Assembly (NCBI GenBank): GCA_963783575.1
Contig: CAWAOD010000011.1
Location: forward strand, 448,001-512,000
Direction of reading: 5' to 3'
From: an uncultured Spirochaetota bacterium
GTDB lineage: Bacteria > Spirochaetota > Brevinematia > Brevinematales > JAOACQ01
DNA: 64,000 nucleotides
Each line of letters opens with the position of its first letter. The first letter of the stretch is position 1. Of the stretch, positions 18,451-39,480 are shown one piece after another. The translations under genes and the position numbers were made by a program. The notes under the pieces were generated by a model. That model saw only the letters and a list, made by a program, of their open reading frames with translations. It was not told the DNA's origin and did not search any database.

Positions 18451-19038
18451 TTAGACTTTAAATATAACTATCAAACATTTTAAATAATCAACCATCTTGT
18501 TCTCCAGGTCATAGCCGTTATCATGCAGTACCCAGTCGTATACTATTCCTCTGCCCATAATAAACAAATAGTCGGCTATATCTCCCGGAGGCATTTCATT
18601 TTTGATCTCGTTCTTTTCCTGGCCTTCTTTAATGATTTTTTCAAGCAGGATATGCATATATCTGCCTTTTGCAATGAAGAGTTTGTTTTTCGAGTTATAT
18701 AACTGGCTAATAGCGTCTAATCCCTGATTACTATTATATTTCGCGTAAACCCTGAAGAAGAAAACGATTTGATCGACGGAACTTTCCTGGACCAGTAAAT
18801 TTGAGACTTCATTCTTAAAATAATCATCTGCAATTTTATAAATTTCATAAAAAATAGCTTCCTTAGAACTGAAATAATGATAAAAAGCCCCGATTGATAC
18901 TCTGGTTTTTTTACAAATATCTTTTATCGTAACTTTATCGAAACCTTTCTTATTTATCAGTTCCATTGCGATTTTATAAATATACTCTTTTGATTTTATT
19001 GCCTGAAGCTTTCTTTTAGTAAAAGATTTTTGTTTCAT
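18451..19038 (-). CDS. TetR/AcrR family transcriptional regulator
   Basis: KGFDKVTIKDICKKTRVSIGAFYHYFSSKEAI helix-turn-helix; divergent from mmsA. Confidence 0.93.
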   Translation of the reverse strand: MKQKSFTKRKLQAIKSKEYIYKIAMELINKKGFDKVTIKDICKKTRVSIGAFYHYFSSKEAIFYEIYKIADDYFKNEVSNLLVQESSVDQIVFFFRVYAKYNSNQGLDAISQLYNSKNKLFIAKGRYMHILLEKIIKEGQEKNEIKNEMPPGDIADYLFIMGRGIVYDWVLHDNGYDLENKMVDYLKCLIVIFKV

Positions 19039-19194
19039 AATCGCCTATTTTTGAATAGATTTTTGAAAAAACTCGTTAAATACTATTTAAAAAAGCTAAC
19101 TATATTAATTATGACAGAATATTTTAAAAAAAGCAATAAAGTCATTCTTTAAGGTAAATAAATCACCTTGTAAATTAAATAAAAGTACTCCTTC

Positions 19195-19253
19195 TTGACT
19201 TCTTTTTTATATCAATATAAAATGAATATATTCAGTGAACATGTTCGGTGAAT
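19195..19253 (+). promoter_or_regulatory. Sigma70 promoter of the mmsA operon with abutting operator-like repeat
   Basis: TTGACT(19195)-17 bp-TAAAAT(19218), then gaatatattc-agt-gaacatgttc-ggt-gaat. Confidence 0.75.
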
Positions 19254-19272
19254 TTAAATTTAAGGAGATTAT

Positions 19273-20790
19273 ATGAGTAGTGTAAAAAAATTGAGTTATT
19301 TTGCCGGTGGAAAATGGATCGAATCGAAGACATCAAAGTATATGGATATCTGGAATCCGAGCACCGGAGAAAAGCTGGCAGAGGCTCCTTGCTGTACTCC
19401 TGAAGAGGTGGAGTCTGCCGTTATAGTAGCGAAAAAAGCTTTCCCTGAATGGGCGGCCACTCCTGTGCTGAAAAGAGTCCAGGTACTCTATAAATTCAGA
19501 GAGCTTTTGCTGAAGAATCTTGATGAACTTACAATGATTTGCTGTAAGGAACATGGTAAAGTATGGGAAGAATCAAAAGGAGATATTCTCAAAGTCATAG
19601 AGCCTGTCGAGATGGCTTGCGGCGCTCCGGTCTTGATGATGGGCGAATCTCTGATGAATACATCAACCGGTTTTGATACCGTACTTTACCGGGAACCGGT
19701 CGGAGTGTTCGCCGGTATAGCTCCATTCAACTTCCCTGCCATGATTCCAATGGGATGGATGATGCCGCTTTGCATTGCTACCGGAAATACAATCGTTATA
19801 AAAGCCTCCAGCAGTACGCCGATGACATCGATGAGGTGCGCAGAACTCCTTCAGGAAGCCGGACTTCCAAACGGTGTGGTAAATATTGTAACTTGCAGCC
19901 GGAACGAGGCGGAGATATTCTTAAAACATCCTGATGTGAGGGGGATATCCTTTGTAGGGTCGACATCGGTTGGATTACATATTTATTCAACCGCAGCAGC
20001 CAACGGGAAGAGGGTTCAGGCTCTATGCGAGGCGAAAAACCATGCGCTTGTTATGGAGGATGCCGCGCTGGAAAGGACTGCACGCGGAATAATCAATTCC
20101 GGGTTCGGTTGCTGCGGAGAAAGATGCATGGCGCTCCCTGTAATTGTAGCACACGAAAAAATAGCAGATAAACTTGTTTCTTTTCTTGTAAAATATGCAA
20201 ACGAATTGAAGATCGGACCGGCTTATGATAAAAATTCGGAGCTCGGACCTGCTGTAACCGAAAGTCAGAGAAAATCGATTCTGGAATGGATCGAGACCGG
20301 CATTAAGGAAGGCGCCAAACTGGTGCTGGACGGCCGGAAAGTGACTGTAAAGGGATATGAAAATGGTTTCTATCTCGGCCCGACAATATTCGATCATGTC
20401 GGACCGGAAATGTCTGTCGGAAACGATGAAATATTCGGACCGGTAATCTGTGTGAAGCGGGTAAAGAGCTTCGAGGAAGGGCTTGAGCTGATGAACAGCA
20501 ACCGGTTCGCAAACGGCTCCGTAATCTATACCCAGAACGGCTATTACAGCCGTGAATTCGCTTCCAGGACACACGGCGGAATGGTCGGAATCAATGTCGG
20601 AATACCCGTCCCTGTTGGGATATTCCCATTTTCCGGTCATAAGGATTCATTCTTCGGCGATCTTCATACTCTCGGGAAAGACGGAGTCCGTTTCTATACG
20701 GAGACAAAGGTTGTAACAACAAAATGGTTTGATGAAGAGGACATGAAAAAAACCAAGGTGGACAGTTGGGACGGAACGATATCAAGGTAA
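19273..20790 (+). CDS. mmsA: CoA-acylating (methyl)malonate-semialdehyde dehydrogenase
   Basis: APFNFPAMIP, ISFVGST, RVQALCEAKNH, GCCGERCMA catalytic Cys, GMVGINVGIPVP, FFGDLHTLGKDGVRFYT. Confidence 0.93.
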   Translation: MSSVKKLSYFAGGKWIESKTSKYMDIWNPSTGEKLAEAPCCTPEEVESAVIVAKKAFPEWAATPVLKRVQVLYKFRELLLKNLDELTMICCKEHGKVWEESKGDILKVIEPVEMACGAPVLMMGESLMNTSTGFDTVLYREPVGVFAGIAPFNFPAMIPMGWMMPLCIATGNTIVIKASSSTPMTSMRCAELLQEAGLPNGVVNIVTCSRNEAEIFLKHPDVRGISFVGSTSVGLHIYSTAAANGKRVQALCEAKNHALVMEDAALERTARGIINSGFGCCGERCMALPVIVAHEKIADKLVSFLVKYANELKIGPAYDKNSELGPAVTESQRKSILEWIETGIKEGAKLVLDGRKVTVKGYENGFYLGPTIFDHVGPEMSVGNDEIFGPVICVKRVKSFEEGLELMNSNRFANGSVIYTQNGYYSREFASRTHGGMVGINVGIPVPVGIFPFSGHKDSFFGDLHTLGKDGVRFYTETKVVTTKWFDEEDMKKTKVDSWDGTISR

Positions 20791-20835
20791 ATAAAGGCAT
20801 TTATCAGTGGTAATGACTTTAAAAAGGGATAAAAA

Positions 20836-21406
20836 ATGAAAAAGATAAAAACCGGGGTATTTATTCCACTGCCAGTGGAACCGATAGTTTTAGTTGGCGC
20901 TAATGTTAATGGAAAGCCAAATTATATGGCTGTGGGATTTGTCGGCGGTGTAAACCATAATCCGGATATTATTTGCGTTAGCCTGAACAAAAATCATTAC
21001 ACGCCGAAGGGAATCATCGAGAACGGTACATTCAGTATCAACGTACCTTCTGTCGAATATGTTACAGAAACTGATTACTGCGGATTGGTCAGTGGTCGAG
21101 AAGTAGATAAGTCCGGAATTTTTACCACTTTCTATGGTGAACTTGAAACAGCGCCCATGATTGAAGAGTTCCCGATTGTCTGTGAATGCCGCTATACAGG
21201 CCAAAGAATGGAGTTCTCCATGGATATCGCATATTTCGGAGAAGTAGCGCAAGTGTATATTAACGAAAATCTTGTACGGGAAAACAATGAGATTGATGTC
21301 ATAAAAGCTAATCCAATATGTTATGCACGTATCGATTAAAAAATATCGTTCTTTAGGGGAAGAAGTAGGTCAGGGGTGGATGACAGGCAAGCTGTATAAG
21401 GCCTAG
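20836..21406 (+). CDS. Flavin reductase/flavoredoxin family protein, apparent frameshift at ~21336
   Basis: GKPNYM, FSINVP, TDYCGLVSGR, APMIEEFP; removing one base restores the typical C-terminus DKKYRSLGEEVGQGWMTGKLYKA*. Confidence 0.82.
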
Positions 21407-21547
21407 CTTTTGTGATAAAATATAACGGCTATGGACGCCGGGATAAAAGCGGCTAAGGTATCAGATTATCCGGATGTGATCGAGAAAAAATTACTTCCGC
21501 CGGATGACAGGAAACTTTATATTCCAAATAATATATAGGAAAAATCT

Positions 21548-22390
21548 ATGTTTAAAATACTGGAAAAATGTTGTCTCGGGCCAAAGATTCAACTGGCTGA
21601 GATTGATGCTCCGCTGATAGCTGAGAAAGCGATGGCAGGCCAGTTTGTCATCATACGAATGAAGGAAAAAGGAGAAAGAATTCCGTTAACAATTGCCGAT
21701 TATAACAGGGACAAAGGTACAGTAACGCTTGTTTTTCAGGAATTGGGCAAATCTACGCATCAGCTTGGAAGCATAAAGGCCGGCGATTATCTGATCGACA
21801 TGCTTGGCCCTCAGGGAAACCCTACGGAGATAGAAAATTTCGGAAATGTCGTTGTGATCGGCGGAGGGATTGGGATAGCGCCGGTATTTCCTCTTGCAAG
21901 AGAACTGAAAAAATCGGGTAATAAAGTATTGTCTATTATCGGCTACAGGTCTAAAGATCATGTTTTCTGGGAAGATAAAATGCGTTCGGTTTCCGATACG
22001 GTTATGGCAATGACTAACGATGGATCTTATGGTAAAAAAGGTCTTGTCACCGATGCTCTGATTAATCTCCTGATAAAAAGTGAAAAAATTGACAGGGTTT
22101 TCGCCATTGGACCGGCTGTCATGATGAAGGCGGTAACAAAGATGACAAAACCATTAGGGATTCCCACGATAGTCAGTCTGAACTCCCTTATGGTTTGTGG
22201 AATGGGGATGTGCGGAGCATGCAGGGTAACCGTCGGAGACAAGACTAAATTCACCTGCATGGATGGAGCAGATTTTGAGGGGAGTGATGTGGATTTCGAT
22301 GAACTGATGAAACGCCTTGACACATACAAACCGCAGGAAAAGTCATGTATGGAAAACTGGGATGTGGAGTGTTCCAATGTCCATCAGTAA
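21548..22390 (+). CDS. nfnA: Electron-bifurcating transhydrogenase small subunit NfnA
   Basis: GQFVIIR...GERIPLTIAD, GGGIGIAP, CGMGMCGACRV...C [2Fe-2S] motif; overlaps nfnB. Confidence 0.88.
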   Translation: MFKILEKCCLGPKIQLAEIDAPLIAEKAMAGQFVIIRMKEKGERIPLTIADYNRDKGTVTLVFQELGKSTHQLGSIKAGDYLIDMLGPQGNPTEIENFGNVVVIGGGIGIAPVFPLARELKKSGNKVLSIIGYRSKDHVFWEDKMRSVSDTVMAMTNDGSYGKKGLVTDALINLLIKSEKIDRVFAIGPAVMMKAVTKMTKPLGIPTIVSLNSLMVCGMGMCGACRVTVGDKTKFTCMDGADFEGSDVDFDELMKRLDTYKPQEKSCMENWDVECSNVHQ

Positions 22391-23783
22391 AAAAGCAGTG
22401 CCGATGCGGGAACAGCCTGCAGGGGAAAGAAGAAATAATTTCAATGAAGTTCCTTATGGATATTCTATTGAAGAAGCGATAACGGAGTCAGAAAGATGCC
22501 TTCAATGTAAGAATAAACCATGCATTGAAGGCTGTCCTGTAAACATTGATATCCCGGGTTTTATCCTTGCCGTAAAGCAGAAGGAATTTATGAAGGCCAG
22601 CGAAATAATTCATGCTACCGACGCTCTTCCCGCAATAACCGGCCGTGTATGTCCTCAAGAGGAACAGTGCCAATGCAGATGTGTTGCCGGAAAAATTGGA
22701 GACCCCGTGGCAATTGGAAGACTTGAGAGGTTTGTAGCCGACTGGGAACTCGCAGAGAGAAATAAAGGAAATGTTAAAATACCGGGAAAAAATATTACAA
22801 AAACCGAAAAAATAGCGGTCATCGGTTCAGGCCCTGCCGGGGTTTCTTGCGCTGCCGACCTCGCTATGATGGGTTATGAAGTTACTGTTTACGAAGGTTT
22901 TCATAGCCTTGGCGGTGTACTTGTATATGGAATTCCCGAATTCAGGCTGCCAAAGGATATTGTAAAAACTGAAATTGAATCTTTGAAGAACATGGGGGTC
23001 TATTTTCAGACGAATGTTCTGATCGGGCGTGCTCTGACAATTAATGACCTCTTTAAAAAAGGTTTTAAGGCTGTTTTTATCGGAACAGGTGCCGGATTAC
23101 CGGTTTTCATGGGTATACCTGGTGAGAACCTTAATGGCGTCTACTCAGCCAACGAGTATCTTACAAGGGTTAACCTTATGAAGGCATATGAATATCCTCA
23201 TAATTCCGAAACACCTGTTCTGATGGGGAAACGAGTAGCTGTTATAGGCGGAGGAAATGTGGCAATGGACGCCGCGAGGACGGCAATACGGCTGGGCGCC
23301 GAACATGTTTATTTGATTTACAGAAGAACGGAAAAGGAAATGCCGGCCAGAGTAGAAGAAGTGCACCATGCGAAGGAAGAAGGCATTGAATTTCAGTTTT
23401 TATCTGCGCCGTTGTATTATATCGGCGATGAAACGGGTTTTATAGAATCCGTGAAGTGTATCAGAATGGAGCTTGGCGAACCGGATTCATCTGGAAGGAG
23501 GAGGCCTATAGAAATCAAAGGATCGGAATATATGCTTGAAATCGACCAGGTGATTGTCGCTATAGGAACTACGCCCAACCCTCTGATTAAAAAAACGACA
23601 CCGGAACTGACAACAAAGAAGCATGGTGAAATAGAAGCCGATGAGGATGGGAAGACATCTATGGAAGGAGTTTTCGCTGGAGGCGATATTGTTACCGGAG
23701 CAGCTACTGTTGTCACAGCCATGGGCGCAGGAAAAAAAGCGGCAGCGGCTATAAACTCCTATATCGTTTCCCAACAAAACTGA
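22377..23783 (+). CDS. nfnB: Electron-bifurcating transhydrogenase large subunit NfnB (GltD-like)
   Basis: RCLQCKNKPCIEGCP, GRVCPQEEQC, GSGPAG, YGIPEFRLP, GGGNVAMDAAR, FAGGD; paired with nfnA. Confidence 0.9.
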   Translation: MSISKKAVPMREQPAGERRNNFNEVPYGYSIEEAITESERCLQCKNKPCIEGCPVNIDIPGFILAVKQKEFMKASEIIHATDALPAITGRVCPQEEQCQCRCVAGKIGDPVAIGRLERFVADWELAERNKGNVKIPGKNITKTEKIAVIGSGPAGVSCAADLAMMGYEVTVYEGFHSLGGVLVYGIPEFRLPKDIVKTEIESLKNMGVYFQTNVLIGRALTINDLFKKGFKAVFIGTGAGLPVFMGIPGENLNGVYSANEYLTRVNLMKAYEYPHNSETPVLMGKRVAVIGGGNVAMDAARTAIRLGAEHVYLIYRRTEKEMPARVEEVHHAKEEGIEFQFLSAPLYYIGDETGFIESVKCIRMELGEPDSSGRRRPIEIKGSEYMLEIDQVIVAIGTTPNPLIKKTTPELTTKKHGEIEADEDGKTSMEGVFAGGDIVTGAATVVTAMGAGKKAAAAINSYIVSQQN

Positions 23784-23895
23784 CAGGGATTGTTAAGATA
23801 AAATTTAATAGCAGTCTCAAGTAATACTAATAGCATCTTCATACCAGCAGTATTTACTGTAATGCGAATTTTAGATAAATGGTTAAATATACAAT

Positions 23896-23924
23896 TCCCC
23901 CGGTTCGATAAACTTACCGGGGGA
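23896..23924. terminator. GC-rich hairpin between convergent operons, containing a REP-like core
   Basis: tcccccggt-11 nt-accggggga; includes ggttcgataaacttacc. Confidence 0.55.
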
Positions 23925-23942
23925 TGGGCATTATTTAGTAAT

Positions 23943-25597
23943 TTAGTTTTTTCCTAACGCTGGAATTGATGGCAAAGTTGTATACATTCTGTCTCCAATA
24001 TTGTTAGGATCGAAAATCTCTTTAATTTTTGCCTGGTACCAGAATACAAGCGGTTGTTTCAATTTTCTCAATTCTTCATGAATCTTTTCGTCTGTCCAAC
24101 CGACTTGCAGGTATATAAATTCTTTCCCGGGCGGATAGCCGTTAGAAACTGCGTCTCTTACCGCATCTTCCATGTGTTTGATGGCAGCAGCGTTGGAAGC
24201 AGCATCGGCTGGGTCATAAGAAACAAACTGTTCGAATCCCATTGCTCCTCCCCCGTAAGGCCGCTTCCGCAACCCATTAAAGCATCGCCTCCGCACTGAA
24301 CAAGATTTCCGCTTTCAGCATCCCTTGCCAACCCTGCGATGGCGATAGGGGCATAACCTTTTACAAGATCAGGGGTTCCGGATTGCATCCAGCTGCCGAG
24401 GTAGCCGCCCACCCAGACAAAATTCAGGTGCTTATGCCCCAATCTTTGCAGATACATATTTGTAAATTCGGCCATTTCCTGTTCACAGTATTTTTTTACC
24501 TTAAAGCCGCCGGTTTCTTTTAGAATTTCATCAAGAATTTTATCCTGAAGTTCAATATCTTTAATGGAGCGGCCTGAAAGAATTATCTGAAATGAAATTC
24601 TCATTTCTTCCGTGAGCTTTTTAATTTCCGGATCATTGACCATTGTCTCAACATCATTGAGTGTTTTTTTATAATCATTGTACATCAGCCAGAAGGCTGG
24701 AGCCAGATTAGCGCCGGCAAGATTGAATTGTCTATGGAAGATATAACCTATTTCATTATCATAGATTTTGTAATAACTGTCGGCCCATGCGTCCCAGTTC
24801 GGCATTGCAAGAGTATAAACCCTGAAATTATCCCCGACCGGCAGACGGTAGGCTGGAACAGTACCCTTTACATCCAATTTCGCCGGGCCATTCCAGGGGG
24901 ATAGTTTAATAGCGCATTTCGTATATACACCTAATCCGCCTCTTGAACCCATTACGCCTCTGAGTATACCCCTTATGCTCGATCCCGGGCCTTCGCTGCA
25001 GAAACACTCTCCGGTGGAATTGAATGAACCGATTGTTAAAACTTCACCTTCCGGAGTAACCCACTCCATACCAAGAAGGTTATCTGAATTATGTCCCATA
25101 TAATATGTGCTCGGTCCCGGTCCAAAGTAGGCGCAAGCGCTTGCCACAATCGATGTGGTTGATCCTGCCCCAATAATATTAAGATTCAATCCAAGTTTCA
25201 TTACTTCGGCTTGAAGTTGTGCACAGATAACATAAGGTTCAACTATCGCCACCATGTTTTTTTCATCGATTTTAATAATCTTGTTCATTCTTCTGAGATC
25301 CAGTTGGATTGTATCTTCACTGTCCTTTAAAGGCGCAGCCCAATGGTACCAGCCTGTTGAAATCGGTTTTAATTTTATTTTATATTTGTTGCATACTTTG
25401 GTAATTGCCTGTACCTCTTTTGTACTTTCAGGCATTATAACCGCAACAGGCCGGGGCATGAATTTACTGTAGTTTTTACGGACGGTTTCCGCCATCCATT
25501 CAAAAGCATAGGAATCGAGAAATGCCGGATCATCTGTTATATATTCTGGTCCTACTATATCTTCAAATTCACGGTAAGCTTCTTTTGATAACGCCAT
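23943..25597 (-). CDS. FAD-binding oxidoreductase (VAO/PCMH/GlcD superfamily), cassette 1 third enzyme gene, apparent frameshift at ~24257
   Basis: PVAVIMPESTKEVQAITKVCN, LDLRRMNKII, VEP, LLGMEWVTPEGE; C-terminus KEIFDPNNIG lies in the adjacent frame (23943..24296) and matches the paralog. Confidence 0.85.
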
Positions 25598-25618
25598 ATT
25601 TAATCCTCCTTACAAAAT

Positions 25619-26890
25619 TTACACAGCCAGGTCTATAAGTTCCATGATGTCAAATATTTTCATTTTTCTATTTCTTCCATTTTCGGCTTCAATAAAATTA
25701 TCCTCACACCATGGGCAGGCAGTCACAAGAGCTTCGGCACCGGTAGATTCAGCTTCCTCTATTCTTTCCGAGGCGGTCGCGCTTGAAAACTCGGGATAAG
25801 CCTCTTTAACTCCGCCACCGGCTCCGCAACACCACGCGGATTCCCTATTGCGCTCCATTTCAATCAGTTCCAGACCCGGTATCGCATTTAAAATATTTCT
25901 CGGCTGATCATAAATTCCATAAGCGCCGATATATCTTGGTCTTGGAGGATCATAGATAACAGCCTGACCGAAAATCTTTTTTTCCTTGCCATTCCACTCA
26001 ACATAAGGCTCTCCCTGTCTTCCCAGATAACAGGGATCATGGTAAGTTACTTTCATATTTACTTTTTTAGTAAATTTTAACTTACCTTCTTTAATAAGCT
26101 TATCCGTAAATTCAACCATGTGCATCACCTCAATTTTTGAGCCGTCCTTTGCATAAAGCCTTTTAAAAGTATGGTAACAATCGGCACATGGAGTAACAAC
26201 TGTCTTTATTCCGGCTTTTTCCCATGCGGCTAAATTACTATTCAGGCCATTTTCATAATCTTTTTTGTAACCCATATGGTAGGCCCGGCCGCCGCAGCAT
26301 CCCTCGTTTTGCCCGAAAATTCCGAAATCGATTTTTGCTTTTTGCATGATTCCGACAGAAATTCTGGCGATTTTTTGCAGGTCAGGATTATATGAATATT
26401 GACAGCCCGCATGAAAAACAACTTCGGCTTTTTCTTTTGAAAGGTCTTTAATTTTAAGATCTTTTGCCCAATCACCTCTTTTATCTTTAGGCTTTTTGAG
26501 CATATTGTTCAGTTTTCGATAGCCTTCCATAACCTTGTCATTCTGGGGTATTGTCTTTCCGTCTTCAACCAGTTTAAATCTCAATTCATGCAATGCCGCT
26601 AATGGTTCCATATCATAACGGCATATTTTACAGGTAACATCGCAGTTCCCACAGAGCTGGCATTTAAAAACGGAGTCTTTCACCTTATCGGTAACCTCGA
26701 TCCTGCCTTCCAGCAAAGATAACAAAGTCACCAGCCTTCCGCCGGCCGAATAAGAATGAAAATGATTATATTCTATACTCGGACACCCTTTTGCAAATCT
26801 CCAGCTTTTTATTTGATCAATAGGAATCCACTTGCAATAAGCGCATCTTGTACAACGTAACGCATCATTTTTATAATCTTCAAGCGCCAT
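25619..26890 (-). CDS. Fe-S oxidoreductase with 4Fe-4S and two CCG domains (GlcF/HdrD-like), cassette 1
   Basis: CTRCAYC...CP, CQLCGNCDVTC, GCCGG, YHDPCYLGR, WCCGAGGG, TACPWC. Confidence 0.9.
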   Translation of the reverse strand: MALEDYKNDALRCTRCAYCKWIPIDQIKSWRFAKGCPSIEYNHFHSYSAGGRLVTLLSLLEGRIEVTDKVKDSVFKCQLCGNCDVTCKICRYDMEPLAALHELRFKLVEDGKTIPQNDKVMEGYRKLNNMLKKPKDKRGDWAKDLKIKDLSKEKAEVVFHAGCQYSYNPDLQKIARISVGIMQKAKIDFGIFGQNEGCCGGRAYHMGYKKDYENGLNSNLAAWEKAGIKTVVTPCADCYHTFKRLYAKDGSKIEVMHMVEFTDKLIKEGKLKFTKKVNMKVTYHDPCYLGRQGEPYVEWNGKEKKIFGQAVIYDPPRPRYIGAYGIYDQPRNILNAIPGLELIEMERNRESAWCCGAGGGVKEAYPEFSSATASERIEEAESTGAEALVTACPWCEDNFIEAENGRNRKMKIFDIMELIDLAV

Positions 26891-26909
26891 AATATATTCC
26901 TCCTATAAT

Positions 26910-29740: not shown

Positions 29741-29798
29741 ATTCACCGAACTAGTTCAGCGAACAGATTCATTCTATATTAATTTGAAAAAAAGTCAA
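29741..29798 (-). promoter_or_regulatory. Sigma70 promoter of cassette 1 with abutting operator-like repeat
   Basis: Minus strand: TTGACT-16 bp-TAGAAT-gaatctgttc-gct-gaactagttc-ggt-gaat. Confidence 0.75.
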
Positions 29799-29976: not shown

Positions 29977-30647
29977 ATGAGTAATATATTGGAACAGCTG
30001 GCTTTATGTATCGAGCGCGGTAAGATGGATGCAAATTCTTCCTATCCTCCGGATATGAAAGGGCAAAAAGGAGCCGATGAATTGACAAAAGAGGCTATTG
30101 CGGCTAATATTCCGGTAAATGATATACTTGAAAAAGCCCTCATAACAGGAATGAACAATATCGGAATCAAATTTAAGGAAAACAAGGTTTTTGTTCCTGA
30201 TTTGATGATGGCGGCAAAGGCTATGAAAACAGCGATGAATTATTTAAAACCCTATTTTCAGAAAGGAGAGGCAAAAAAGAAAGGTACATTGATTATAGGA
30301 ACAGCGGCAGGTGATTTGCATGATATAGGAAAAAAGTCGTGGTTGCCCTGATTATTGAAGGAGCCGGATGGGAAGTAATAGACCTTGGCGTTGATGTTAA
30401 AACGGATAAATTCCTGAATGCAATCAATGAAAAACCTCAAGCGGTGGTAGGTTTAAGTTCTTTGTTAACAACCACAATGATGTCCATGGCTCATTCTGTT
30501 AAAGCCATAAAGGAGAAATTCCCGGGCACAAAGATTATTGTAGGCGGAGCCCCCGTCACCAAGGCGTTTGCCGATAAAATCGGGGCTCATGCTAACGCAT
30601 CCGATCCTCAAAGCGCAATAAAAGTCCTTAATGATTTGGTTTCATAA
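29977..30647 (+). CDS. Corrinoid (B12-binding) methyl-carrier protein, apparent frameshift at ~30331-30338
   Basis: Cap domain (GMNNIGIKFKENKVFVPDLMMAAKAM); DLHDIGK base-off motif; GWEVIDLGVDV, VGLSSLLTTTM and VGGAPVT in the next frame; break in an A run. Confidence 0.9.
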
Positions 30648-30729
30648 TCAAATTTGCAATTGAAAATATTAGAATATCAATGCAGAAGTGGAAAAATACT
30701 GAACAAAATAATATTCAAGAAAGAGGAGT

Positions 30730-31449
30730 ATGTTAGAAAATATAGAAAAACCTTTTATATTTAAAATAGATATTGATAATGATTTTGAAATAACAAAAGG
30801 GTCATTATTGGAATTCATGGGATACCGATCCGAATCTTATCCCGAAGTACTGGATGATTGTTTTGAAATATTATTTAAAAATCTTTCAAGGCATTATAAA
30901 CCTCAAGCAGGATTCTGCATTTGTAAAAAGGTCAGTGCGGCTGGAAAAGGTTTTATTTGTGAAGATGTCTTTTTTTCAACCGGGAAAATAATCGCCGAAA
31001 GGCTGAGACGCTCGGAGCATCTTGCTTTTTTCATATTGACCGCAGGAGCCGAAATGGATGAATGGTCCGGTAAATTGTTCAGTGAGGATAATACATTATT
31101 GGGTTATATAGTCGACTGCGCCGGTTCCGAATTGGCTGAAAATCTTGCGGATAAAGTCCAAAATAAACTGGAGGAGATTTGCAAGGCGGAAGGGCTTTTT
31201 ATAACAAACCGTTATAGCCCGGGATATTGCGGATGGGACACAAAAGAACAAAAGAAGCTTTTTTCATTTTTCCCTGATAATTTCTGCGGGGTAAGTTTAA
31301 ATGAGTCATGTTTGATGAACCCTATTAAATCTATTAGCGGAGTTATCGGGCTGGGTAAAAAGGTCGCAAAACAGGAATACCAATGTTCAATTTGCGGCCG
31401 TAAGGATTGTTTTAAAAAAACAATAAAAAAAGCAGGTAAATATGAATAA
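30730..31449 (+). CDS. Stand-alone MetH activation-domain-like protein
   Basis: FILTAG, RYSPGYCGW, GVSLNESCLMNPIKSISGVIG, C-terminal CSICGRKDC. Confidence 0.85.
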   Translation: MLENIEKPFIFKIDIDNDFEITKGSLLEFMGYRSESYPEVLDDCFEILFKNLSRHYKPQAGFCICKKVSAAGKGFICEDVFFSTGKIIAERLRRSEHLAFFILTAGAEMDEWSGKLFSEDNTLLGYIVDCAGSELAENLADKVQNKLEEICKAEGLFITNRYSPGYCGWDTKEQKKLFSFFPDNFCGVSLNESCLMNPIKSISGVIGLGKKVAKQEYQCSICGRKDCFKKTIKKAGKYE

Positions 31450-32332
31450 GATTGTAAGCGAGCTTAAAACAGGAGAAATAATGATTTCAGATGGTGCATG
31501 GGGAACATTTCTTCAGCAGAAAGGCTTAAAAGTTGGGGATTGTCCGGAGTTCTGGAATATTACAAACCGGGAAGATGTTCTTGATATAGCGGAATCGTAC
31601 GTTAAAGCCGGGGCGGATATGATTGAGTCGAATAGTTTCGGCGGCTCAAGAATTAAGCTTGATTATTATGGATTGGGGGAACAAACGGCCAGAATCAATG
31701 AAACGGCGGCGGTTATTTCCCGGAAAGCGGCAGGAGATGACCGGCATGTTATCGCGTCAATAGGACCCACCGGAAAAATGCTGATAACCGGAGATGTGAC
31801 AGAGGAACAATTGTATGATGTTTTTAAAGAACAGTCTATGGCCCTGGAAAAAGGCGGTGCAGACGCAGCTTGTATTGAAACTATGTCGGCTCTGGATGAG
31901 GCGGTCATCGCAGTAAAAGCAGTAAAGGAAAATACAGGTCTTGAAATTTTAGCATCTTTTACTTTTGAACAAAAAGATAGAAAATATTATACGATGATGG
32001 GAATCACCCCGGAAAATATTGTTAAAGATTTGATCAATGCCGGCGCTGATATCATCGGAACAAATTGCGGAAACGGCATTGCAGGTATGATAGGTATTGT
32101 CGCTGAAATAAGAAGAATAAATATGAATATACCGGTAATAGTACAGGCAAATGCAGGCTTGCCCGAAGTTGTCGGTGGACGTATAATTTACAGGGAAACT
32201 CCAGAAATTATGGCTTCCTATATTCCACAACTAATTGAAGCCGGAACGAATATAATCGGCGGCTGCTGCGGAACAACGCCGGAACATATTAAAAAAATCA
32301 AAGAAGCGGTTTTAAGATTTATAAACGGGTAA
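31442..32332 (+). CDS. Homocysteine S-methyltransferase domain protein (MetH Hcy domain-like)
   Basis: SDGAWGT, AGADMIESNSFG, SIGPTG, IETMS, GTNC, ANAGLP, GGCCGTTPEHI zinc motifs. Confidence 0.92.
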   Translation: MNKIVSELKTGEIMISDGAWGTFLQQKGLKVGDCPEFWNITNREDVLDIAESYVKAGADMIESNSFGGSRIKLDYYGLGEQTARINETAAVISRKAAGDDRHVIASIGPTGKMLITGDVTEEQLYDVFKEQSMALEKGGADAACIETMSALDEAVIAVKAVKENTGLEILASFTFEQKDRKYYTMMGITPENIVKDLINAGADIIGTNCGNGIAGMIGIVAEIRRINMNIPVIVQANAGLPEVVGGRIIYRETPEIMASYIPQLIEAGTNIIGGCCGTTPEHIKKIKEAVLRFING

Positions 32333-32493: not shown

Positions 32494-33510
32494 TTATACA
32501 CCGTAAGTTTTCTTGTTATATCTGTTTATCTCATCGGTAATTATCGGATCCACATGAGGATAAATCGTTCCTATTGCGCCGTATGTGATGCATGGTATAA
32601 AATGGCCCCTGGGAGCGTATTCTTCACAAGCTCTTCTTGTCTCGTTCCTTATCTCTTCTTCGGTCGCATCTGCGCGGTCTACTATTGCGGCATCAATTCC
32701 ACCCATCAGTGTCATACGGCCGTCAAGTTTTTCCTGAATTTCCGGAATATCGTTTTGAGGAAGAACCCCCTGCCAAATATCTATACCAAGTTCAGCCATA
32801 TCTTCAACTATCGGCTCAAGATAAGAATCCGCGTGATGCATAATAATTACTCGTTTGTCTTTCATATATTTATAGGTTTTTATATATTGTGGTTTGATAA
32901 ATTCACGCCAGGCATCCGGATTCATAAACAGATTAGATTTAGTCCCCCAGTCGTCATGACTCAGCATAATATCCGGCTTCAGATTGTCGACTATTAATTT
33001 CATATAGTTATAGCGGTATTCACCGACGACCTGGCAGAATTCTGCCATATATTCCGGCTCGATCAGCATGTTCGTTAAAGTATCTTCAAACCCCATAAGA
33101 AAATGCAGCTGCTCAAACACACCGGTAGGCATAAATGTCATAAGCAGATAATTTTCACGGTCAATCTTGGAAATGGCTTCAAGGGCCGGTTCCCAAAGTT
33201 TCGGATCAGAGCAGTTTGCTAAAAGATCCGGTACTTTTATATATTCTCTCCATTTTGTAATATCAGGTAATACCTTGTCATCAGGAGTGACATGAGGCAT
33301 TACTCCATATTGATCTTCCGGCCACAAAACTGTTGTTCCCCATCTATCCTTGAGTGGCGGCATTCCTCTAAAACGTTTTCCCCGAATGTAAGCTGCAACC
33401 GGTTCGGCAAGGAAAAATATGCAATTCTCGTACTGATTAACCAGGCGATCTGGCTTACCGTATTTTCTTACTGTCTCAAGAAAATTTTCTTTGGCTGTCA
33501 GCAATCTCAT
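32494..33510 (-). CDS. UroD/MtaA-CmuA family methyltransferase (corrinoid MT1-like), last gene of cassette 2
   Basis: DRWG, GVFEQLHFLMGFEDTL, HDDWGTK, MHHADS, MGGID, FIPC. Confidence 0.8.
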   Translation of the reverse strand: MRLLTAKENFLETVRKYGKPDRLVNQYENCIFFLAEPVAAYIRGKRFRGMPPLKDRWGTTVLWPEDQYGVMPHVTPDDKVLPDITKWREYIKVPDLLANCSDPKLWEPALEAISKIDRENYLLMTFMPTGVFEQLHFLMGFEDTLTNMLIEPEYMAEFCQVVGEYRYNYMKLIVDNLKPDIMLSHDDWGTKSNLFMNPDAWREFIKPQYIKTYKYMKDKRVIIMHHADSYLEPIVEDMAELGIDIWQGVLPQNDIPEIQEKLDGRMTLMGGIDAAIVDRADATEEEIRNETRRACEEYAPRGHFIPCITYGAIGTIYPHVDPIITDEINRYNKKTYGV

Positions 33511-33628
33511 CCTTCCTTATACATTTATTGAAAAATGAAGATTTTAATAGACGATATATTACTGAAATAACTTAAATAAGTCAAAAAACAAGCTATCTAA
33601 TCCCAAATTGCCTTCAAAATTTAAATTA

Positions 33629-35286
33629 TTATTCGTCATCCAGAGTTTCAAAATATTGATCACCAAGATCATTCGGATTAAAGGCTTTTTTGATTTTCGA
33701 CTGATATCTAAAAGCATTCGGCTGAGGGGCTGCAAGATGCATTTTATCACGTTCTTCTTTCGGAGTAGTCCGTCCATCCGAACCTCTTGCGGCAGCATTC
33801 CATTTTTCCATACCACATGCAATCCAGCCATTTTTTTGTGAAAACTCAGATGCGGCATTGAAAAATTCCAGCGTCCCTTCTGTTGATTCCCTGTCAAAAG
33901 GATCCCAGCATGTAAAGTTTTCCCAAAGACCTGTTCCTCCGCCTCCCTGTCCTCCAATGGGGCCCATCATACAATCGCCTCCGGCATCAACAATCGCTCC
34001 CTTTTTCTCCCATGGGATTTTAAACTGAGCACTTTCCTCAGCATGGGCAGCTCCGTAATCCATAGGCATTAATAATCCGTAACATCCGTCATAGCCGCCG
34101 CCGAAAACAAGATTTAAATTCTTATGCCCTAACCTTACCAGGTAAAGCAATACCCAATCTCTAATTTCAGGCGCATTCATTGCTTCAACCTTCCATCCGC
34201 CCGTTTGTTTAAGAATTTCATCGAGAGCCTTGTCCTGCCATTCGATATCATTTTTCGTCATTCCTGCCATAACAAACTGGAAATCTCTAATGGATTCGTC
34301 AGTAACTTTTTTGACTTCTGGATCCTCAAGAAATTTTTCAAGGTCATTGAGAGTTTTTGTAGGATCGGTAAGAATCTTAACCATCGCATATTTTAAATCC
34401 CTTCCCAACATATTGAATTGTCTATGACCAAGATATCCGATTCCCGCGTCCCAGATTGCATAAGCGCCGTCAGCCCAGGCTTTCCATGATGGGAATGAAA
34501 GTGTATATGCTCTAAATTTTTCTGTCAAATTCATCCTGTACGCAGGAACAATTCCTTCAACCGGCAATTTCGCAGGTCCGGGCCATGCAAAAAGCTTTAC
34601 CGAACATTTGGTGAAAACACCCATTGCCCCTTTAGTTCCCAATAATCCTCTGAATATTCCCCTCATGTCGGTCCTGGCCCTTCGCCGCAAAACCATCCGC
34701 AACCCGATCCTAAAGAACCTGTCCGCAAAATCTCTCCGTCAGGCATTACCCACTCAACTCCGAGAAGGTTTTCATATAATGACCCGCCATAAAGATTTCC
34801 TGGTCCGGAACCCAAATAAGCGGCTGCGCTTGCCAGAACCGAACCGCTGCATCCTGATCCGGGAATATGAGTATTCAATCCCACTTTCATCGCTTCAGCC
34901 TGAAGTTGAGCCCCGATTACCCCAGGTTCAACTACTGCTATCATATTTTTTTCATCAATTTCTATAATTCTGTCCATTCTTCTCATATCCAGCTGGATCG
35001 TATCGTCTTCTGACGGATATCCCATAGCAGCCCAGAATGTACTTGCTGCCTTAAATTTTACTTTATATTTATTGCAAACTCTTACAATTGCCTGAACTTC
35101 TTCCAAACTTCCGGGAAGTAAAACGGCAGCTCCCCGGGGACTATAAACATCAAAAAAAGGTCCCTGATGGTTTGAAGTTTGAGACATTGAATATCTATAT
35201 GAATCAAGCAATGCCGGATCGTTTGAAATATTTTTTGAACCGACAATTTCTTTAAGCGCCGAATAAATTTCATTTGATAATGCCAT
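33629..35286 (-). CDS. FAD-binding oxidoreductase (VAO/PCMH/GlcD superfamily), cassette 2 third enzyme gene, apparent frameshift at ~34668
   Basis: 34663..35286 plus 33629..34702 are collinear with the 23943..25597 paralog (EGPGP/MRGIFRG vs [21 protein letters not shown] vs RLGHKHLN). Confidence 0.85.
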
Positions 35287-35297
35287 TTTGACCTCCT

Positions 35298-36569
35298 TTA
35301 TAAGGCTTTAAAAACCAGTTCAACGATATCGTAAACTTCCATTGTTCCCTTATTTTCTTCTATGGCTTCAATAAAGTTGCTCTCACACCACGGGCACGCA
35401 GATACCATCGCTTTTGCGCCTGTGGTTTTTGCTTCATCTATTCTTTCCATTGCAGTCCACTTTGATAATTCGGGGTACGCCTCACGTACTCCTCCGCCTG
35501 ATCCGCAGCACCAGCTGTATTCCCGTATTCTTTCCATTTCAACAAGTTCAATTCCGGGAATACTTTTTAAAATATTTCTTGGCGGTTCATATACTCCCCA
35601 GGCACCGTTATATCTTGGTTTTTTCGGTTCATAAACAATGATTTGGTTTTTGATTTTCTTTTCTTTTCCGCTCCAGGGTATATAAGGTTCTCCCTGTCTT
35701 CCAAGATGGCATGGATCGTGGTAGGTGACAGTCATTGGGATTTTTTTAGTAAATTTCATTTTTCCTTCTTTAATCAAGCCATCAATGTATTCGACAGAAT
35801 GAATTACTTCAATTCTGGAACCGTATTTCGGATAAAGATGCTTGAAAGTGTAATAACAATCCGAACATGAAGTTACAATTTTTTTAACTCCGGATTTTTC
35901 CCATAAAGCAATATTTGCTTTTGCAATTTTCTCAAATTCGGCATCATATCCCATTGAATATATTCTTCCGCCGCAACACATTTCTTTTCCACCCATAATT
36001 GCAAAATCAATTTTCATTTTCTGGAAAATCTGTGCGGCTGTGCACACCGTGTTTTGTAATTTCTCGTCAAAACTGTATCTGCATCCTGCAAAAAAGAGAA
36101 CTTCTTTTTTTTCAGTTCCAAGAACCTGCAGATTTAATCCATCCGACCATTTACCCCTTTTACTCCTTGGCTGAGACATCGAATTTTGATCTTTATTCAA
36201 ACTTTCAATAATCTTTTCATGAACTTTTAATCCTTGTCCATCCTTAACGAGTTTTGATTTAAGTTCTCTTACCATTTCAAGTGGTTCTAGATTATAGCGG
36301 CATATTTTACAGCTCACATCGCATGAGCCGCAATTAAGGCAAGAAAAAGCAATATCCTGTACGGTTTCAGAATAAGTACTCTGTCCTTTCAGCAAAGACC
36401 TTCCTACCAGATACCTACCTCGCGCAGAATAACTGTTAAAATTATTATAAGAAACGCTCGGACAATTTTTAGCAAACCGCCAGCTTTTTACCTGATCGAA
36501 TGGAACCCATTTACAGTAAGAACATGCGCTGCATCGTTCCATTTCAGCCAAAAATTTTTCCAAAGCCAT
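35298..36569 (-). CDS. Fe-S oxidoreductase with CCG domains (GlcF/HdrD-like), cassette 2
   Basis: CSACSYC...[35 protein letters not shown]; 423 aa, same length as the cassette 1 paralog. Confidence 0.9.
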
Positions 36570-36596
36570 ATATTTACTCCTTTATTGTTATCTTTT

Positions 36597-38063
36597 TCAA
36601 AAGCAGAGTTTATGGGGATTCATGATATGATTAGGGTCAAAAATATCTTTTATTTTCTTCATTGTAATTGTAGTTCTTGCATCCCTGTTATAGGTCATTT
36701 CCGACCATATTCCATAAGGCCGAGAGAAATAAGCGCCTTGATTCTGTATAACTATGCTTGCATCATTAAACAATTTTTCAGATTTCAAAATTTCGGAACC
36801 ATCTTTGTTATTCACCGGTAATATAAACTCGCAATGACAGCTTACTCCCTGATGAGCAGGCTGTAAATAAACCCCAATATCTGAAACCGGATATTGATGT
36901 TCTTTTGCTTTATTACTCATTTTAATAATGAAATCCGGTGTTTTATCCATTGTCGTCATAAAGAATATTTCTTTCATGCTTCCTTTGCTTCTTATTTTCC
37001 AGTATGGGTTTTCAGACGGTTTTTGTAATATCTCATAGAAGTCCTGACTTCGGCATTCTCCAATCTGATTTTCCAATTTTAAACCGAATTGCTGGGCAAT
37101 ATCTCTGATATCCGCTTCCTGTCCTTCAACTTTTTCTTTAGGTAAAATTTCACCGCCTGTAATCCCTATAATAACTGCCCATTCGGGTAATATTGATTTT
37201 AAAGATTCTGTTTCGTCTGAATTTTTTGATAAGATATTGGCAAAATAAGCGTTATTTATAATAAATAATTCATCGCCGAATCTAAATCTCAGAAGTTTGT
37301 AAGTAAAATCGATCAGGCTGTTTATGTTATTGGAAGGGACAAAAAACAATTTCCTGTATGATGGCAGAACTTCGCATTTTACAGAAGCCCAGGTTACAAT
37401 ACCCATACTTCCCTGCGCGCCTGAAATAAGCCGGTAATAATCTACCTGAGCCGGCCCCGGACCTGTTGCCGGTACGATTCCTTTTTCCCAATCCTCCTCT
37501 TTTAAACTGCGAAATCCACCGCTCCCGCTCCATAATTTATCACCGTTTCCCCATATTATTTCAAGGCTTCTTAAAGGATCCATCATATTCCACTGGAACC
37601 TCGGAGAAACTATCGGCTCACGTTCTAAAAGACTTGCTATAACAGATTTATTCATCCTCGGTAAAAGAGGAGTAATAAGCCTCATACCTTCTTTTTCAAG
37701 AGCAGGCTGGAGTTCTGAATATGTAACTCCAGGTTCTATAACAGCCAATCTATTTCTTCTGTTTATTTTCAAAATTTTTTTCATTTTAGTCAAATCTACT
37801 ATTACCGCTTCCGGTAAGGAAGGAGCACTGTCTCCGCGTATATGCGGAGCCCCCGAACTGACAGGTATAAGCGGAGTTTTAGTTTCATTTGCCCATTTTA
37901 CGACTTCCTGAATTTGACCGACTTCAGCCGGCTTAACAACAAACCAGGGTTTGATATTCATTCCAGAGCTATTATCATTTTTGTAATTATCAAGAATCTC
38001 CGGGTCATCCAAAACATTCTCTTGGCCTAAAATTTTTACAAGACTGTCTTTGGTGCCGTTCAT
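36597..38063 (-). CDS. FAD-binding oxidoreductase (VAO/PCMH/GlcD superfamily), cassette 2 first enzyme gene
   Basis: WANETKTPLIPVSSG, IEPGVTY, GAQGSMGIV, FDPNHIMNPHKL. Confidence 0.9.
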   Translation of the reverse strand: MNGTKDSLVKILGQENVLDDPEILDNYKNDNSSGMNIKPWFVVKPAEVGQIQEVVKWANETKTPLIPVSSGAPHIRGDSAPSLPEAVIVDLTKMKKILKINRRNRLAVIEPGVTYSELQPALEKEGMRLITPLLPRMNKSVIASLLEREPIVSPRFQWNMMDPLRSLEIIWGNGDKLWSGSGGFRSLKEEDWEKGIVPATGPGPAQVDYYRLISGAQGSMGIVTWASVKCEVLPSYRKLFFVPSNNINSLIDFTYKLLRFRFGDELFIINNAYFANILSKNSDETESLKSILPEWAVIIGITGGEILPKEKVEGQEADIRDIAQQFGLKLENQIGECRSQDFYEILQKPSENPYWKIRSKGSMKEIFFMTTMDKTPDFIIKMSNKAKEHQYPVSDIGVYLQPAHQGVSCHCEFILPVNNKDGSEILKSEKLFNDASIVIQNQGAYFSRPYGIWSEMTYNRDARTTITMKKIKDIFDPNHIMNPHKLCF

Positions 38064-38093
38064 CTATTGCCTCCCCATCTTTAATTAAAAAAA

Positions 38094-38130
38094 GTTACGA
38101 GTGGCTAATATTAAGTCTGCCACTCGTAAC
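38094..38130. terminator. Intra-operon stem-loop, copy 2
   Basis: gttacgagtggc-13 nt-gccactcgtaac, followed by a T7 tract on the minus strand. Confidence 0.7.
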
Positions 38131-38181
38131 AGTAATATTTTTTATTCTTTGAATTATGCCGGTTTGTATTTTATCTCAATC

Positions 38182-39402
38182 CTATGCTTGTTTAAGTGAT
38201 TTTCTAATTCTGCCTGCAACGGGCAATATAAACAACCCGGCAAACAGGGTAATTGGAATCAGGACGATCAGCACTTGTGCCGCAGTTTTTCCACCGCCCA
38301 GTAAAACACCAGCAAGCATAGGCCCGGCAATCGTACCAAGGCGTCCGAAGGATACGGTTGCTCCGACACCGGTATTTCTGATTTCAGCCGGATAACAGAG
38401 CGGAGCGAAAGCGTAAAGGATAGACTGTGCACCGGTTACTGCAAGGCCTATGACGAATGCTACAGGCAATATCAGTCCGAAATTCAGGGAAGCGAAGCCT
38501 AATATGGCTAAAAATACTGCAAGCGCAATATACGCAGTAATAGGCGTAGAAAATGTAAATTTCTTATCCAGCATATAGCCCGCTAATGCCGCTCCTGCGG
38601 AAGAACCTAAGTTATAAATCATCTGGATAACCTGCGCATTCTGCTTGGATAGCCCCATAGCTTCCATTAAAGAAGGCATCCAGCCTAAAAGTAAATACAT
38701 AACCAGAAGTGTCAGAAACGTAGCCAGCCATATGGATATCGTTGTGGTTCCCTGACCCTTTCCGAAGATCCCGGATAGTAAATTACCACCTGATGCCATA
38801 GATTCAGTTTCCTTTTTTGATAAAACCGGTTCTTCTTTAGGAAGGAAAAACGCGAGAAGAGGCGCGACAATAATAGGAGCCAGACCACCTATCAGGTAAA
38901 CAGGCTTCCAGTTATTGCCGAAAGCTCCAATCATCATTACTACACTGGAAAGCAACCCGCCTATTGGAATGGCGCAGTAAATAAAACCTACTGCCCTTTT
39001 CTTAAGGTGTGCAGGGCTGTGGTCGCTGGTCAGGGCTATAACAACCGGCATAGCCGCCCCCAGTCCGAGACCGGTAAAAAACCTTGCCACCATAAGCGAC
39101 GAAAGTCCGGTAGCAAACAGTGTTGAAATCGATGAAATACCGAACAATAAAACGCCCGTTACTACAACCGGCTTTCGTCCAAAACGATCGGCCAGAAAAC
39201 CGCCCAGTACTGCTGCAATAAAAACGCCTATGGCGCTTGCCCCAAGGAAAGCACCCATCTGGGCAGGTATAAAATGAAAAGCTGGTGCGAGCCTTGGTGC
39301 GGAAACACCGGCAGCCTGGAGATCAAATCCCTCCAGTAAAATAACAAGAGCGCATAAAATAATAACACGATAGGTATGAAGCGATTTTACAGTGTTTTCC
39401 AT
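38182..39402 (-). CDS. MFS transporter, aromatic acid:H+ symporter family (MhpT-like), cassette 2
   Basis: Close paralog of 28503..29720 with the same motifs. Confidence 0.88.
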   Translation of the reverse strand: MENTVKSLHTYRVIILCALVILLEGFDLQAAGVSAPRLAPAFHFIPAQMGAFLGASAIGVFIAAVLGGFLADRFGRKPVVVTGVLLFGISSISTLFATGLSSLMVARFFTGLGLGAAMPVVIALTSDHSPAHLKKRAVGFIYCAIPIGGLLSSVVMMIGAFGNNWKPVYLIGGLAPIIVAPLLAFFLPKEEPVLSKKETESMASGGNLLSGIFGKGQGTTTISIWLATFLTLLVMYLLLGWMPSLMEAMGLSKQNAQVIQMIYNLGSSAGAALAGYMLDKKFTFSTPITAYIALAVFLAILGFASLNFGLILPVAFVIGLAVTGAQSILYAFAPLCYPAEIRNTGVGATVSFGRLGTIAGPMLAGVLLGGGKTAAQVLIVLIPITLFAGLFILPVAGRIRKSLKQA

Positions 39403-39422
39403 GAATATCCTCCAAAATATTT

Positions 39423-39480
39423 ATTCACCGAACTAGTTCTGCTAACTGATTCATTTTAAAACTATTGTTAAAAAAGTCAA
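39423..39480 (-). promoter_or_regulatory. Sigma70 promoter of cassette 2 with abutting operator-like repeat
   Basis: Minus strand: TTGACT-16 bp-TAAAAT-gaatcagtta-gca-gaactagttc-ggt-gaat. Confidence 0.75.

Follow-up and report, generated by a model that had tools for sequence, protein, structure and literature searches.

What would an uncultured spirochaete do with two sets of genes related to a complex proposed to activate benzene without oxygen? The question is raised by a locus at positions 18451..39480 of a 64,000-nucleotide stretch of Spirochaetota DNA (hereafter the window), in which two cassettes lie near mmsA, a gene for a CoA-acylating semialdehyde dehydrogenase. Each cassette encodes a transporter of the major facilitator superfamily (MFS) followed by a triad: flavoprotein B, a CCG iron-sulfur (Fe-S) protein and flavoprotein A. 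Sequence comparison places the window triads in the same family as the 'Magic' heterotrimer of benzene-degrading anaerobes, in a different subfamily. From their surroundings we develop a tentative pathway for methoxylated phenylpropanoic acids.

According to the passages of two 2026 reports considered here (Musat et al., PMC13416013; Toth et al., PMC13101534), a B-CCG-A heterotrimer is the dominant protein of benzene-degrading anaerobes and is the proposed anaerobic benzene-activating complex. Its members include ORM2a Proteins #24-26 (WAC08368-70; PMC13101534) and BzS1_12970/80/90 (PMC13416013). Labelled 3-phenylpropanoate is reported by Musat et al., and cinnamate is the product proposed by Toth et al. 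A profile search with our A family returned the cluster holding WAC08368.1 (ORM2a Protein #24), and hhalign aligned A with this protein over 497 columns (probability 100%, E 1.8e-51). An ortholog of Protein #24 at 76% identity was present in 1 of 401 genomes, in a locus (L201) with the order B-CCG-A-hydroxyacyl-CoA dehydrogenase-like-hydratase-like-TetR. Through this locus as a proxy, the homology of B and CCG to the 'Magic' subunits was measured over their full length; the window subunits share 36% (B), 33-35% (CCG) and 28% (A) identity with those of L201, which falls outside the window's clade.

All three subunits are therefore homologous, and the window triads have the same three adjacent genes, order and domain pattern as the 'Magic' and BzS1 triads: B with an N-terminal flavin adenine dinucleotide (FAD) domain and a C-terminal oxidase domain, CCG, and A with the N-terminal FAD domain only. 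The benzene-degrader core clade is set apart by 63-89% identity and CoA-ligase and beta-oxidation neighbours, whereas the window triads stand at 26-36% and belong to another clade. Their neighbours specify MmsA, O-demethylation and acid transport, in place of the CoA ligase, MaoC and CoA transferases of the 'Magic' type. The second CCG cysteine set, eroded in the 'Magic' type, is intact in the window triads, and a benzoyl-CoA-reductase-type gene was not found in their source genome (G000; 4.9 Mb, 90% complete). In our FastTree, Magic-type B and a B from Allorhizobium sit on long branches and their placement is unsure. The triad family has been in print since 2026, and no member has a measured reaction. 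We dropped the idea that the p-cresol enzyme of Desulfobacula toluolica is such a triad, which was not borne out by the passages of PMC13416013 considered.

Every gene named in a preliminary description of this DNA was found where it had been placed, using an open reading frame (ORF) list with Pfam and family-profile scans. A TetR gene on the minus strand diverges from mmsA-flavin reductase-nfnA-nfnB on the plus strand. Both MFS-B-CCG-A cassettes lie on the minus strand, the second closed by a UroD-family gene, and between them, on the plus strand, are corrinoid, MetH-activation and homocysteine methyltransferase genes. The cassette paralogs are 46-56% identical to each other, with the MFS pair at 80%. 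The features are as follows.

18451..19038, minus strand: TetR-family regulator (PF00440), which likely represses the three promoters with operators
19195..19253, plus strand: sigma70-like promoter, then operator 1 (19230-19253), upstream of mmsA
19273..20790, plus strand: MmsA, CoA-acylating (methyl)malonate-semialdehyde dehydrogenase (TIGR01722, 563.2 bits against a cut-off of 448.5)
20836..21339, plus strand: flavin reductase-like protein (flavoredoxin; PF01613), ending early relative to the congener
21548..23783, plus strand: NfnA (21548-22390) and NfnB (about 22377-23783), a transhydrogenase-type pair (PRK06222 and TIGR01316, above cut-off)
23943..25597, minus strand: flavoprotein A1, VAO/PCMH fold (PF01565), split near 24255
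25619..26890, minus strand: CCG Fe-S subunit 1 (PF02754 twice, PF13183), with two ferredoxin-type and two CCG cysteine sets intact
26910..28382, minus strand: flavoprotein B1, VAO/PCMH fold (PF01565 and PF02913)
28503..29720, minus strand: MhpT-like aromatic acid MFS transporter 1 (MhpT, 392.9 bits, missing the cut-off of 410)
29741..29798, minus strand: promoter and operator 2 (29741-29764) of cassette 1 (palindrome and promoter match)
29977-30647, plus strand: corrinoid protein, split (PF02607/PF02310)
30730-31449, plus strand: MetH reactivation domain (PF02965)
31442-32332, plus strand: homocysteine methyltransferase (PF02574)
32494..33510, minus strand: UroD-family methyltransferase I (PF01208), predicted as a likely aromatic O-demethylase
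33629..35286, minus strand: flavoprotein A2, split near 34668 (homology to A1 and the congener)
35298..36569, minus strand: CCG Fe-S subunit 2 (Pfam and cysteine map)
36597..38063, minus strand: flavoprotein B2 (Pfam)
38182..39402, minus strand: MhpT-like MFS transporter 2 (MhpT, 398.4 bits, missing the cut-off of 410)
39423..39480, minus strand: promoter and operator 3 (39423-39446) of cassette 2 (palindrome and promoter match)

We take the pair at 21548..23783 to be Nfn from its domain make-up; a second nfnAB copy, 69-71% identical, lies on contig C13 of the source genome.

The operator ties these genes together. When the 4.9-Mb genome is scanned with an idealised 24-bp palindrome, the three best matches fall at window positions 19230, 29741 and 39423 (2, 3 and 4 mismatches), in keeping with the single operator-like motif that the preliminary description had seen at three promoters. 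No match with up to 4 mismatches occurred in three shuffles of the genome, a genome-wide test that is circular, as the pattern was derived from the same three sites. An independent test on 92 other triad loci (901,135 bases) yielded 9 matches against 0.15 expected from shuffles. Six of these stand directly before B genes in metagenome loci and three belong to a congener (G001, 57% complete), where they precede an MFS gene, B2 and a second mmsA. Each window operator lies just 3' of a TTGACT-17 bp-TA(A/G)AAT promoter, and the promoter sites of the two MFS genes are duplicates of one another. Most likely, then, mmsA and both cassettes constitute one regulon sharing an operator. The corrinoid/homocysteine operon has its own promoter and no operator. 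A conserved palindrome overlapping the promoters of member operons is the arrangement of a TetR regulon, and the adjacent TetR, the predicted cognate binder, likely represses the three promoters. Relatives of this TetR (39-46% identical) adjoin the triad in 7 of 90 loci, with the operator (up to 4 mismatches) at just 1 of the 7. In the congener, a second MFS and mmsA copy is located at L012 14875-17900 (G001:C19:62875-65900; L numbers denote individual triad loci); this MFS copy lacks a 16-base stretch spanning the operator, and the second mmsA retains one.

To which genes is the triad joined elsewhere? Neighbours were read in 130 other loci, of which 80 were from metagenomes, 10 from Spirochaetota and 40 from long contigs of a Desulfobacterales-phylum set. 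In a FastTree of 116 B rows, prepared after leaving out B fragments shorter than 430 aa or longer than 600 aa, B1 and B2 fall in one 64-row clade (support 98). For B2, at least 120 homologs reach or exceed 57% identity, itself and that of the congener included. B is present in 11 of 401 Spirochaetota genomes and, in a sample of 401 genomes from the phylum to which a Desulfobacterales genome belongs, in 73. The congener was the sole close relative in a GTDB locus search with a single protein (1 of 8 loci), and among 40 relatives it alone has the triad or a close mmsA. Among loci of at least 10 kb (29 inside the clade, 47 outside), MmsA neighbours occur in 11 of 29 inside versus 0 of 47 outside, any corrinoid-methyltransferase gene in 14 versus 3, AOR in 14 versus 4 and UbiD in 4 versus 0, counts that are not independent, the loci being kin, and in which the labels of outside loci derive from similarity to genes of inside loci. 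Zinc-dependent alcohol dehydrogenases (Zn-ADH; 10/29) and Mo-pterin enzymes (4/29) also accompany the triad inside the clade; genes for electron-transfer flavoprotein (ETF) show the opposite trend (1/29 inside, 12/47 outside).

The co-occurrence on which the preliminary description had staked its proposal is consequently seen for MmsA and corrinoid methyltransferases and fails for the transporter: MhpT-like MFS genes appear in 0 of the 130 other loci and are limited to the congener. NfnAB (1 of 130) fares little better, and the MetH-type reactivation protein was not found in 40 relatives. We therefore rejected NfnAB and MFS as conserved members, contrary to the earlier view of NfnAB and the methionine-synthesis module as integral parts; these and the transporter are local additions. 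In the congener, both triads, mmsA, the flavin reductase and MFS are retained but arranged differently, together with another, complete corrinoid system upstream of B2 (corrinoid protein, UroD, pterin-binding methyltransferase II [MT2] and RACo activator); neither NfnAB nor the methionine module was found in the 36 kb of it that were read.

Other arrangements of the family were also seen. Triads outside the MmsA clade frequently have ETF genes attached (L162, L198, L164, L170, L196, L064-L068), and B-CCG or CCG-A fusions occur in some loci (L186, L193). A C_GCAxxG_C_C putative redox protein stands with ADH-AOR genes beside the triad in 11 of 90 loci (L021, L023, L024, L026, L034, L045, L071, L078, L112, L113, L115). 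Triads are carried by 8 Agrobacterium vitis/Allorhizobium plasmids among the matches listed; that of L125 (NC_011981.1, 13983-18477), in an aerobic alphaproteobacterium, has lost the first CCG cysteine set.

The window mmsA is the only copy found in the source genome, and in this genome, G161 and G285 the sole MmsA adjoins the triad. All 14 full-length MmsA neighbours, to which the test was confined (two truncated ones were left out), score above the TIGR01722 cut-off, and they form two identity groups, at 41-45% and 62-75%. No MmsA was found in five outside-clade genomes or in G117. In nine loci (L028, L038, L042, L046, L049, L078, L086, L100, L112) mmsA is followed by a gene for a helical protein of 145-155 aa without a Pfam match, ferritin-like by eye and absent from the source genome; a second type of small protein follows MmsA in L054 and L080. 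At L057 4372-9265, a triad and an MmsA 75% identical to that of the window are followed by a glycyl-radical enzyme that reaches no named-family cut-off and by the activase of that enzyme.

Structure models of B1 (pLDDT 88) and of A from the congener (pLDDT 77) show the VAO/PCMH fold of 4-phenol oxidases. The B1 model is nearest to vanillyl-alcohol dehydrogenase (VAD), PCMH and VAO (TM 0.81-0.84), and the 4-phenol oxidases and dehydrogenases (PCMH PchF, VAO, EUGO, VAD and pinoresinol hydroxylase) also provide its best PDB sequence matches. Verdicts on the A model are split between 4-phenol-type enzymes (Foldseek) and D-lactate dehydrogenases (VIA). The ESM Atlas returned unnamed FAD-binding clusters only, and prediction of the B1-CCG1 pair scored 0.00, giving no verdict. 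Active-site positions were mapped via a natural 4-phenol oxidase, L127, with roles and VAO numbering of the Tyr-Tyr-Arg phenolate site and the flavin-facing Asp that we assume to hold. At 16-21% identity to these enzymes, the triad has mostly lost the covalent His and the Tyr/Asp/Tyr set and has retained the C-terminal Arg, whose equivalent occupies 113 of 115 rows of the B alignment; the alignment of A to the site stops at residue 236. The loss of most of the catalytic set rules out a classical 4-phenol oxidase. The triad also forms a heterotrimer with a CCG Fe-S protein, both window copies of which retain all cluster cysteines, whereas the 4-phenol enzymes use cytochrome c or O2. As described in the parts of PMC7617285 considered, 4-phenol enzymes act via a para-quinone methide, and 4-(methoxymethyl)phenol is a substrate of the oxidases.

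Clues to the substrate come from neighbouring genes. MhpT (NF008586) is by far the best family for both MFS proteins, and for MFS1 the best plasmid matches are likewise MhpT, at about 40%. Sporobacter termitidis has a protein 64% identical to the UroD protein; of the species named among the 120 matches listed it alone is cultured, and according to the section of PMC4585845 considered it grows only on methoxylated aromatics. Of the earlier assignment to UroD/MtaA methyltransferases, the UroD family stands, while the match to MtaA/CmuA (TIGR01463) reaches 37.8 bits against a cut-off of 235.4; a PDB sequence search with this protein gave no match. A UroD fold with a corrinoid-protein neighbour is nevertheless the arrangement of the methyltransferase I (MT1) of aromatic O-demethylases, the activity we predict here. 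The corrinoid aromatic O-demethylases of acetogens comprise MT1, corrinoid protein, MT2 and activator. This four-part set is complete in the congener, whereas the window has a homocysteine methyltransferase and a MetH-type reactivation domain in place of the pterin-binding MT2; its operon at 29977..32332 is likely a methyl-to-methionine module.

Farther afield, the one Mo-pterin neighbour tested is pyrogallol hydroxytransferase-like (E 2.5e-148) and adjoins UbiD/UbiX. An Allorhizobium plasmid, on which no MmsA was found, carries a more distant triad about 6.5 kb from a P450 of the CYP199 family, which O-demethylates para-methoxybenzoates (PMC11530827, in the part considered). Together, the MhpT-like MFS, UroD, UbiD, pyrogallol-transhydroxylase and CYP199 context points to methoxy- or hydroxy-phenylpropanoids, and an aromatic substrate of some kind seems fairly probable. 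The methylated acid of the preliminary description thereby narrows to a methoxylated aromatic acid as the likeliest class, as predicted from context.

The host is probably an acetogenic spirochaete. Its genome contains AcsB and, apart from the locus, a separate full MetH; the acetyl-CoA synthase gene lies near a RACo/AcsV activator (G000:C4:281790-287314). No HGD-D, UbiD-family or ring-reduction genes and no close AOR were found in this 90% complete genome.

We tentatively propose, as a possibility still short of probable, that the regulon around the two triads harvests the methyl group and the C3 side chain of lignin-derived phenylpropanoic acids. The MhpT-like MFS would import a methoxy- or hydroxy-phenylpropanoate such as (dihydro)ferulate, and the UroD enzyme would pass its O-methyl group to the corrinoid protein and on to homocysteine or the Wood-Ljungdahl pathway. 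The benzylic carbon may then be oxidised by B-CCG-A through hydride transfer to the flavin, the Fe-S subunit carrying the electrons away; water addition and cleavage of the aryl-C3 bond would yield phenol or catechol and malonate semialdehyde. From a hydroxycinnamate the sum would be redox-neutral (p-coumarate + H2O = phenol + malonate semialdehyde). MmsA would convert the semialdehyde to acetyl-CoA, CO2 and NADH, and NfnAB would rebalance the pools. Because no ring-reduction genes were found, we suggest that the ring is excreted; the two paralogous triads may take differently substituted rings.

Scission of the whole side chain is favoured for the following reason. The usual shortening of hydroxycinnamate side chains releases C2 units, for which MmsA is not needed; here, a C3 semialdehyde sink shares its operator with an aryl-propionate-type transporter. 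We also count in favour of aryl-C3 chemistry that the benzene studies, independently, indicate phenylpropanoate or cinnamate as the first product.

A number of observations weigh against this proposal, besides the kinship of the loci counted above. Both MFS proteins fall short of the MhpT cut-off. No MmsA lies nearby in 18 of the 29 long in-clade loci, MmsA and a methyltransferase gene coincide in just 5 of the 29, and no TIGR01722 match was found in G114 (one contig, 90% complete) or G149 (92%), two of four such in-clade genomes. Single loci have non-aromatic neighbours (a class III aminotransferase, a glycyl-radical enzyme and a creatininase), and the ABC binding protein of related loci gave weak, non-specific PDB matches and no ligand clue. 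In B, the Asp of the phenolate-type site is replaced by Pro and the second Tyr by Ser, leaving no complete phenolate site; the first Tyr survives in B1 and in 20 of 115 rows, and Arg stands in its place in 69. Re-alignment of A by VIA places D-lactate dehydrogenases (Z 24.6) ahead of phenol oxidases (22.9). Both A genes are frameshifted in the source assembly. Finally, subscription journals aside, we found no precedent in the literature for aryl-C3 scission of this type or for the gene combination. To that extent the label 'undescribed', attached to the system in the preliminary description, still applies to the combination; the triad family itself was described in 2026 as a candidate for benzene activation.

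Could the triad instead serve a small, non-aromatic acid? As a GlcDEF-like dehydrogenase of 3-hydroxypropionate, 3-hydroxyisobutyrate or a demethylated methoxy- or methylthio-propionate, it would pass a semialdehyde straight to MmsA, the simplest source of that enzyme's substrate. GlcDEF glycolate dehydrogenase and the FAD-linked D-lactate dehydrogenases (LctD, LDHD) also have two flavoproteins, a CCG Fe-S subunit and the same fold, and a GlcDEF-style composition is mentioned in the passages of PMC13101534 considered. The VIA result for A, the missing phenolate tyrosines and the aminotransferase adjoining one triad would fit as well. Yet the window flavoproteins score 56-65 bits on TIGR00387, about a tenth of the cut-off of 567.9, the CCG proteins reach 43-45 bits on GlcF against a cut-off of 333, and the C-terminal GEHG metal motif of GlcD reads SRPY in B. 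TIGR00387 and the motif rule out an ortholog of GlcD or lactate dehydrogenase, a point on which the preliminary description was right. With the transporter, methyltransferase, UbiD, transhydroxylase and CYP199 clues all aromatic, and with benzene degraders holding the sole physiologically linked members of the family, we regard a small-acid dehydrogenase as unlikely.

A PCMH-like benzylic dehydrogenase or hydroxylase, acting on demethylated phenylpropanoids or hydroxybenzyl compounds and leaving the aryl-carbon bond uncut, would agree with the fold of B, nearest to VAD and PCMH, and with the two in-clade genomes without MmsA. ADH and AOR, common in the clade as noted, would finish the side chain, and MmsA would belong to a co-recruited route. 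Such an enzyme would leave unexplained the operator shared by mmsA and the existence of two triad-adjacent MmsA lineages, in a host with neither a close AOR nor ring-reduction genes to deal with the product, and we think it rather unlikely.

Oxidative cleavage of an aryl ether or N-linked C3 unit (aryloxy- or indolyl-propionate type) to malonate semialdehyde would account for an aromatic transporter and MmsA without C-C scission, and the acceptance of 4-(methoxymethyl)phenol by 4-phenol oxidases (PMC7617285, in part) lends it some chemistry. But no etherase or indole-related neighbours were present in the annotated clusters and the products of the benzene clade are C-linked, making this improbable.

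The remaining doubt concerns the integrity of the genes. The corrinoid gene is split within an A6 run (about 30330-30340). Relative to the congener, A1 and A2 each have a 1-base deletion (at about 24255 and 34668), and a single-base indel leaves the flavin reductase at 167 aa. Its counterpart in the congener, which likewise comes after mmsA, has 189 aa and is 94% identical; the A1 ortholog there is intact (551 aa, 92-96% identical), and cassette 1 as a whole is unbroken in the congener, at 89-96% identity. The congener has single-base breaks of its own, in mmsA and the tail of A2. That the locus is decaying or a reductive electron sink, with real frameshifts in the A genes, is very improbable: interruptions do affect A1, A2, the corrinoid gene and the flavin reductase, and two of the indels are not within a homopolymer, but the congener's breaks sit elsewhere, the 3 and 2 such indels of the two genomes across about 14 kb of aligned DNA are as expected of assembly errors, and genes outside the locus are split too. 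From these comparisons, the frameshifts are likely assembly errors. At window positions 16213-17899, outside the locus, a gene assigned from sequence motifs as HAMP plus adenylate/guanylate-cyclase-like occupies two ORFs, with a probable assembly indel near 17325-17357. Contigs C7 and C17 of the source genome have a GC content of 52% and 49% against about 37% elsewhere; the genes of C17 look foreign and are likely bin contamination, and a UroD450 match on C17 was set aside on this account.

Returning to the proposed aryl-C3 scission, one may ask whether it extends to benzene activation. We speculate that the B-CCG-A family makes or breaks aryl-C3 bonds with malonate semialdehyde as the C3 partner, the window clade by scission of hydroxy-phenylpropanoates and the benzene clade in reverse, an idea we rate as doubtful. 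On paper, glutaconyl-CoA and H2O would give acetyl-CoA and malonate semialdehyde via 3-hydroxyglutaryl-CoA, and benzene and malonate semialdehyde would give cinnamate and H2O. This two-step sum would equal the overall equation that Toth et al. propose and fit the phenylpropanoate of Musat et al., in the passages considered; it is bookkeeping, not evidence. Against it, unactivated benzene is a chemically difficult target for an aldehyde. If the idea were true, the MmsA-linked clade would allow anaerobic benzene activation to be modelled on easy substrates.

Triads of this family abound in anoxic habitats, and the one known best is the leading candidate for the activation of benzene without oxygen, a question of several decades' standing. 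Benzene cultures cannot provide three things that the window locus does: a regulator that can be screened for ligands on a defined operator, the class of a transporter, and, in the enzyme committed to the next step, a pointer to a candidate product. If release of the C3 side chain is true, it would add a new way in which lignin monomers are used in sediments, with methyl group and side chain consumed and the ring passed on.

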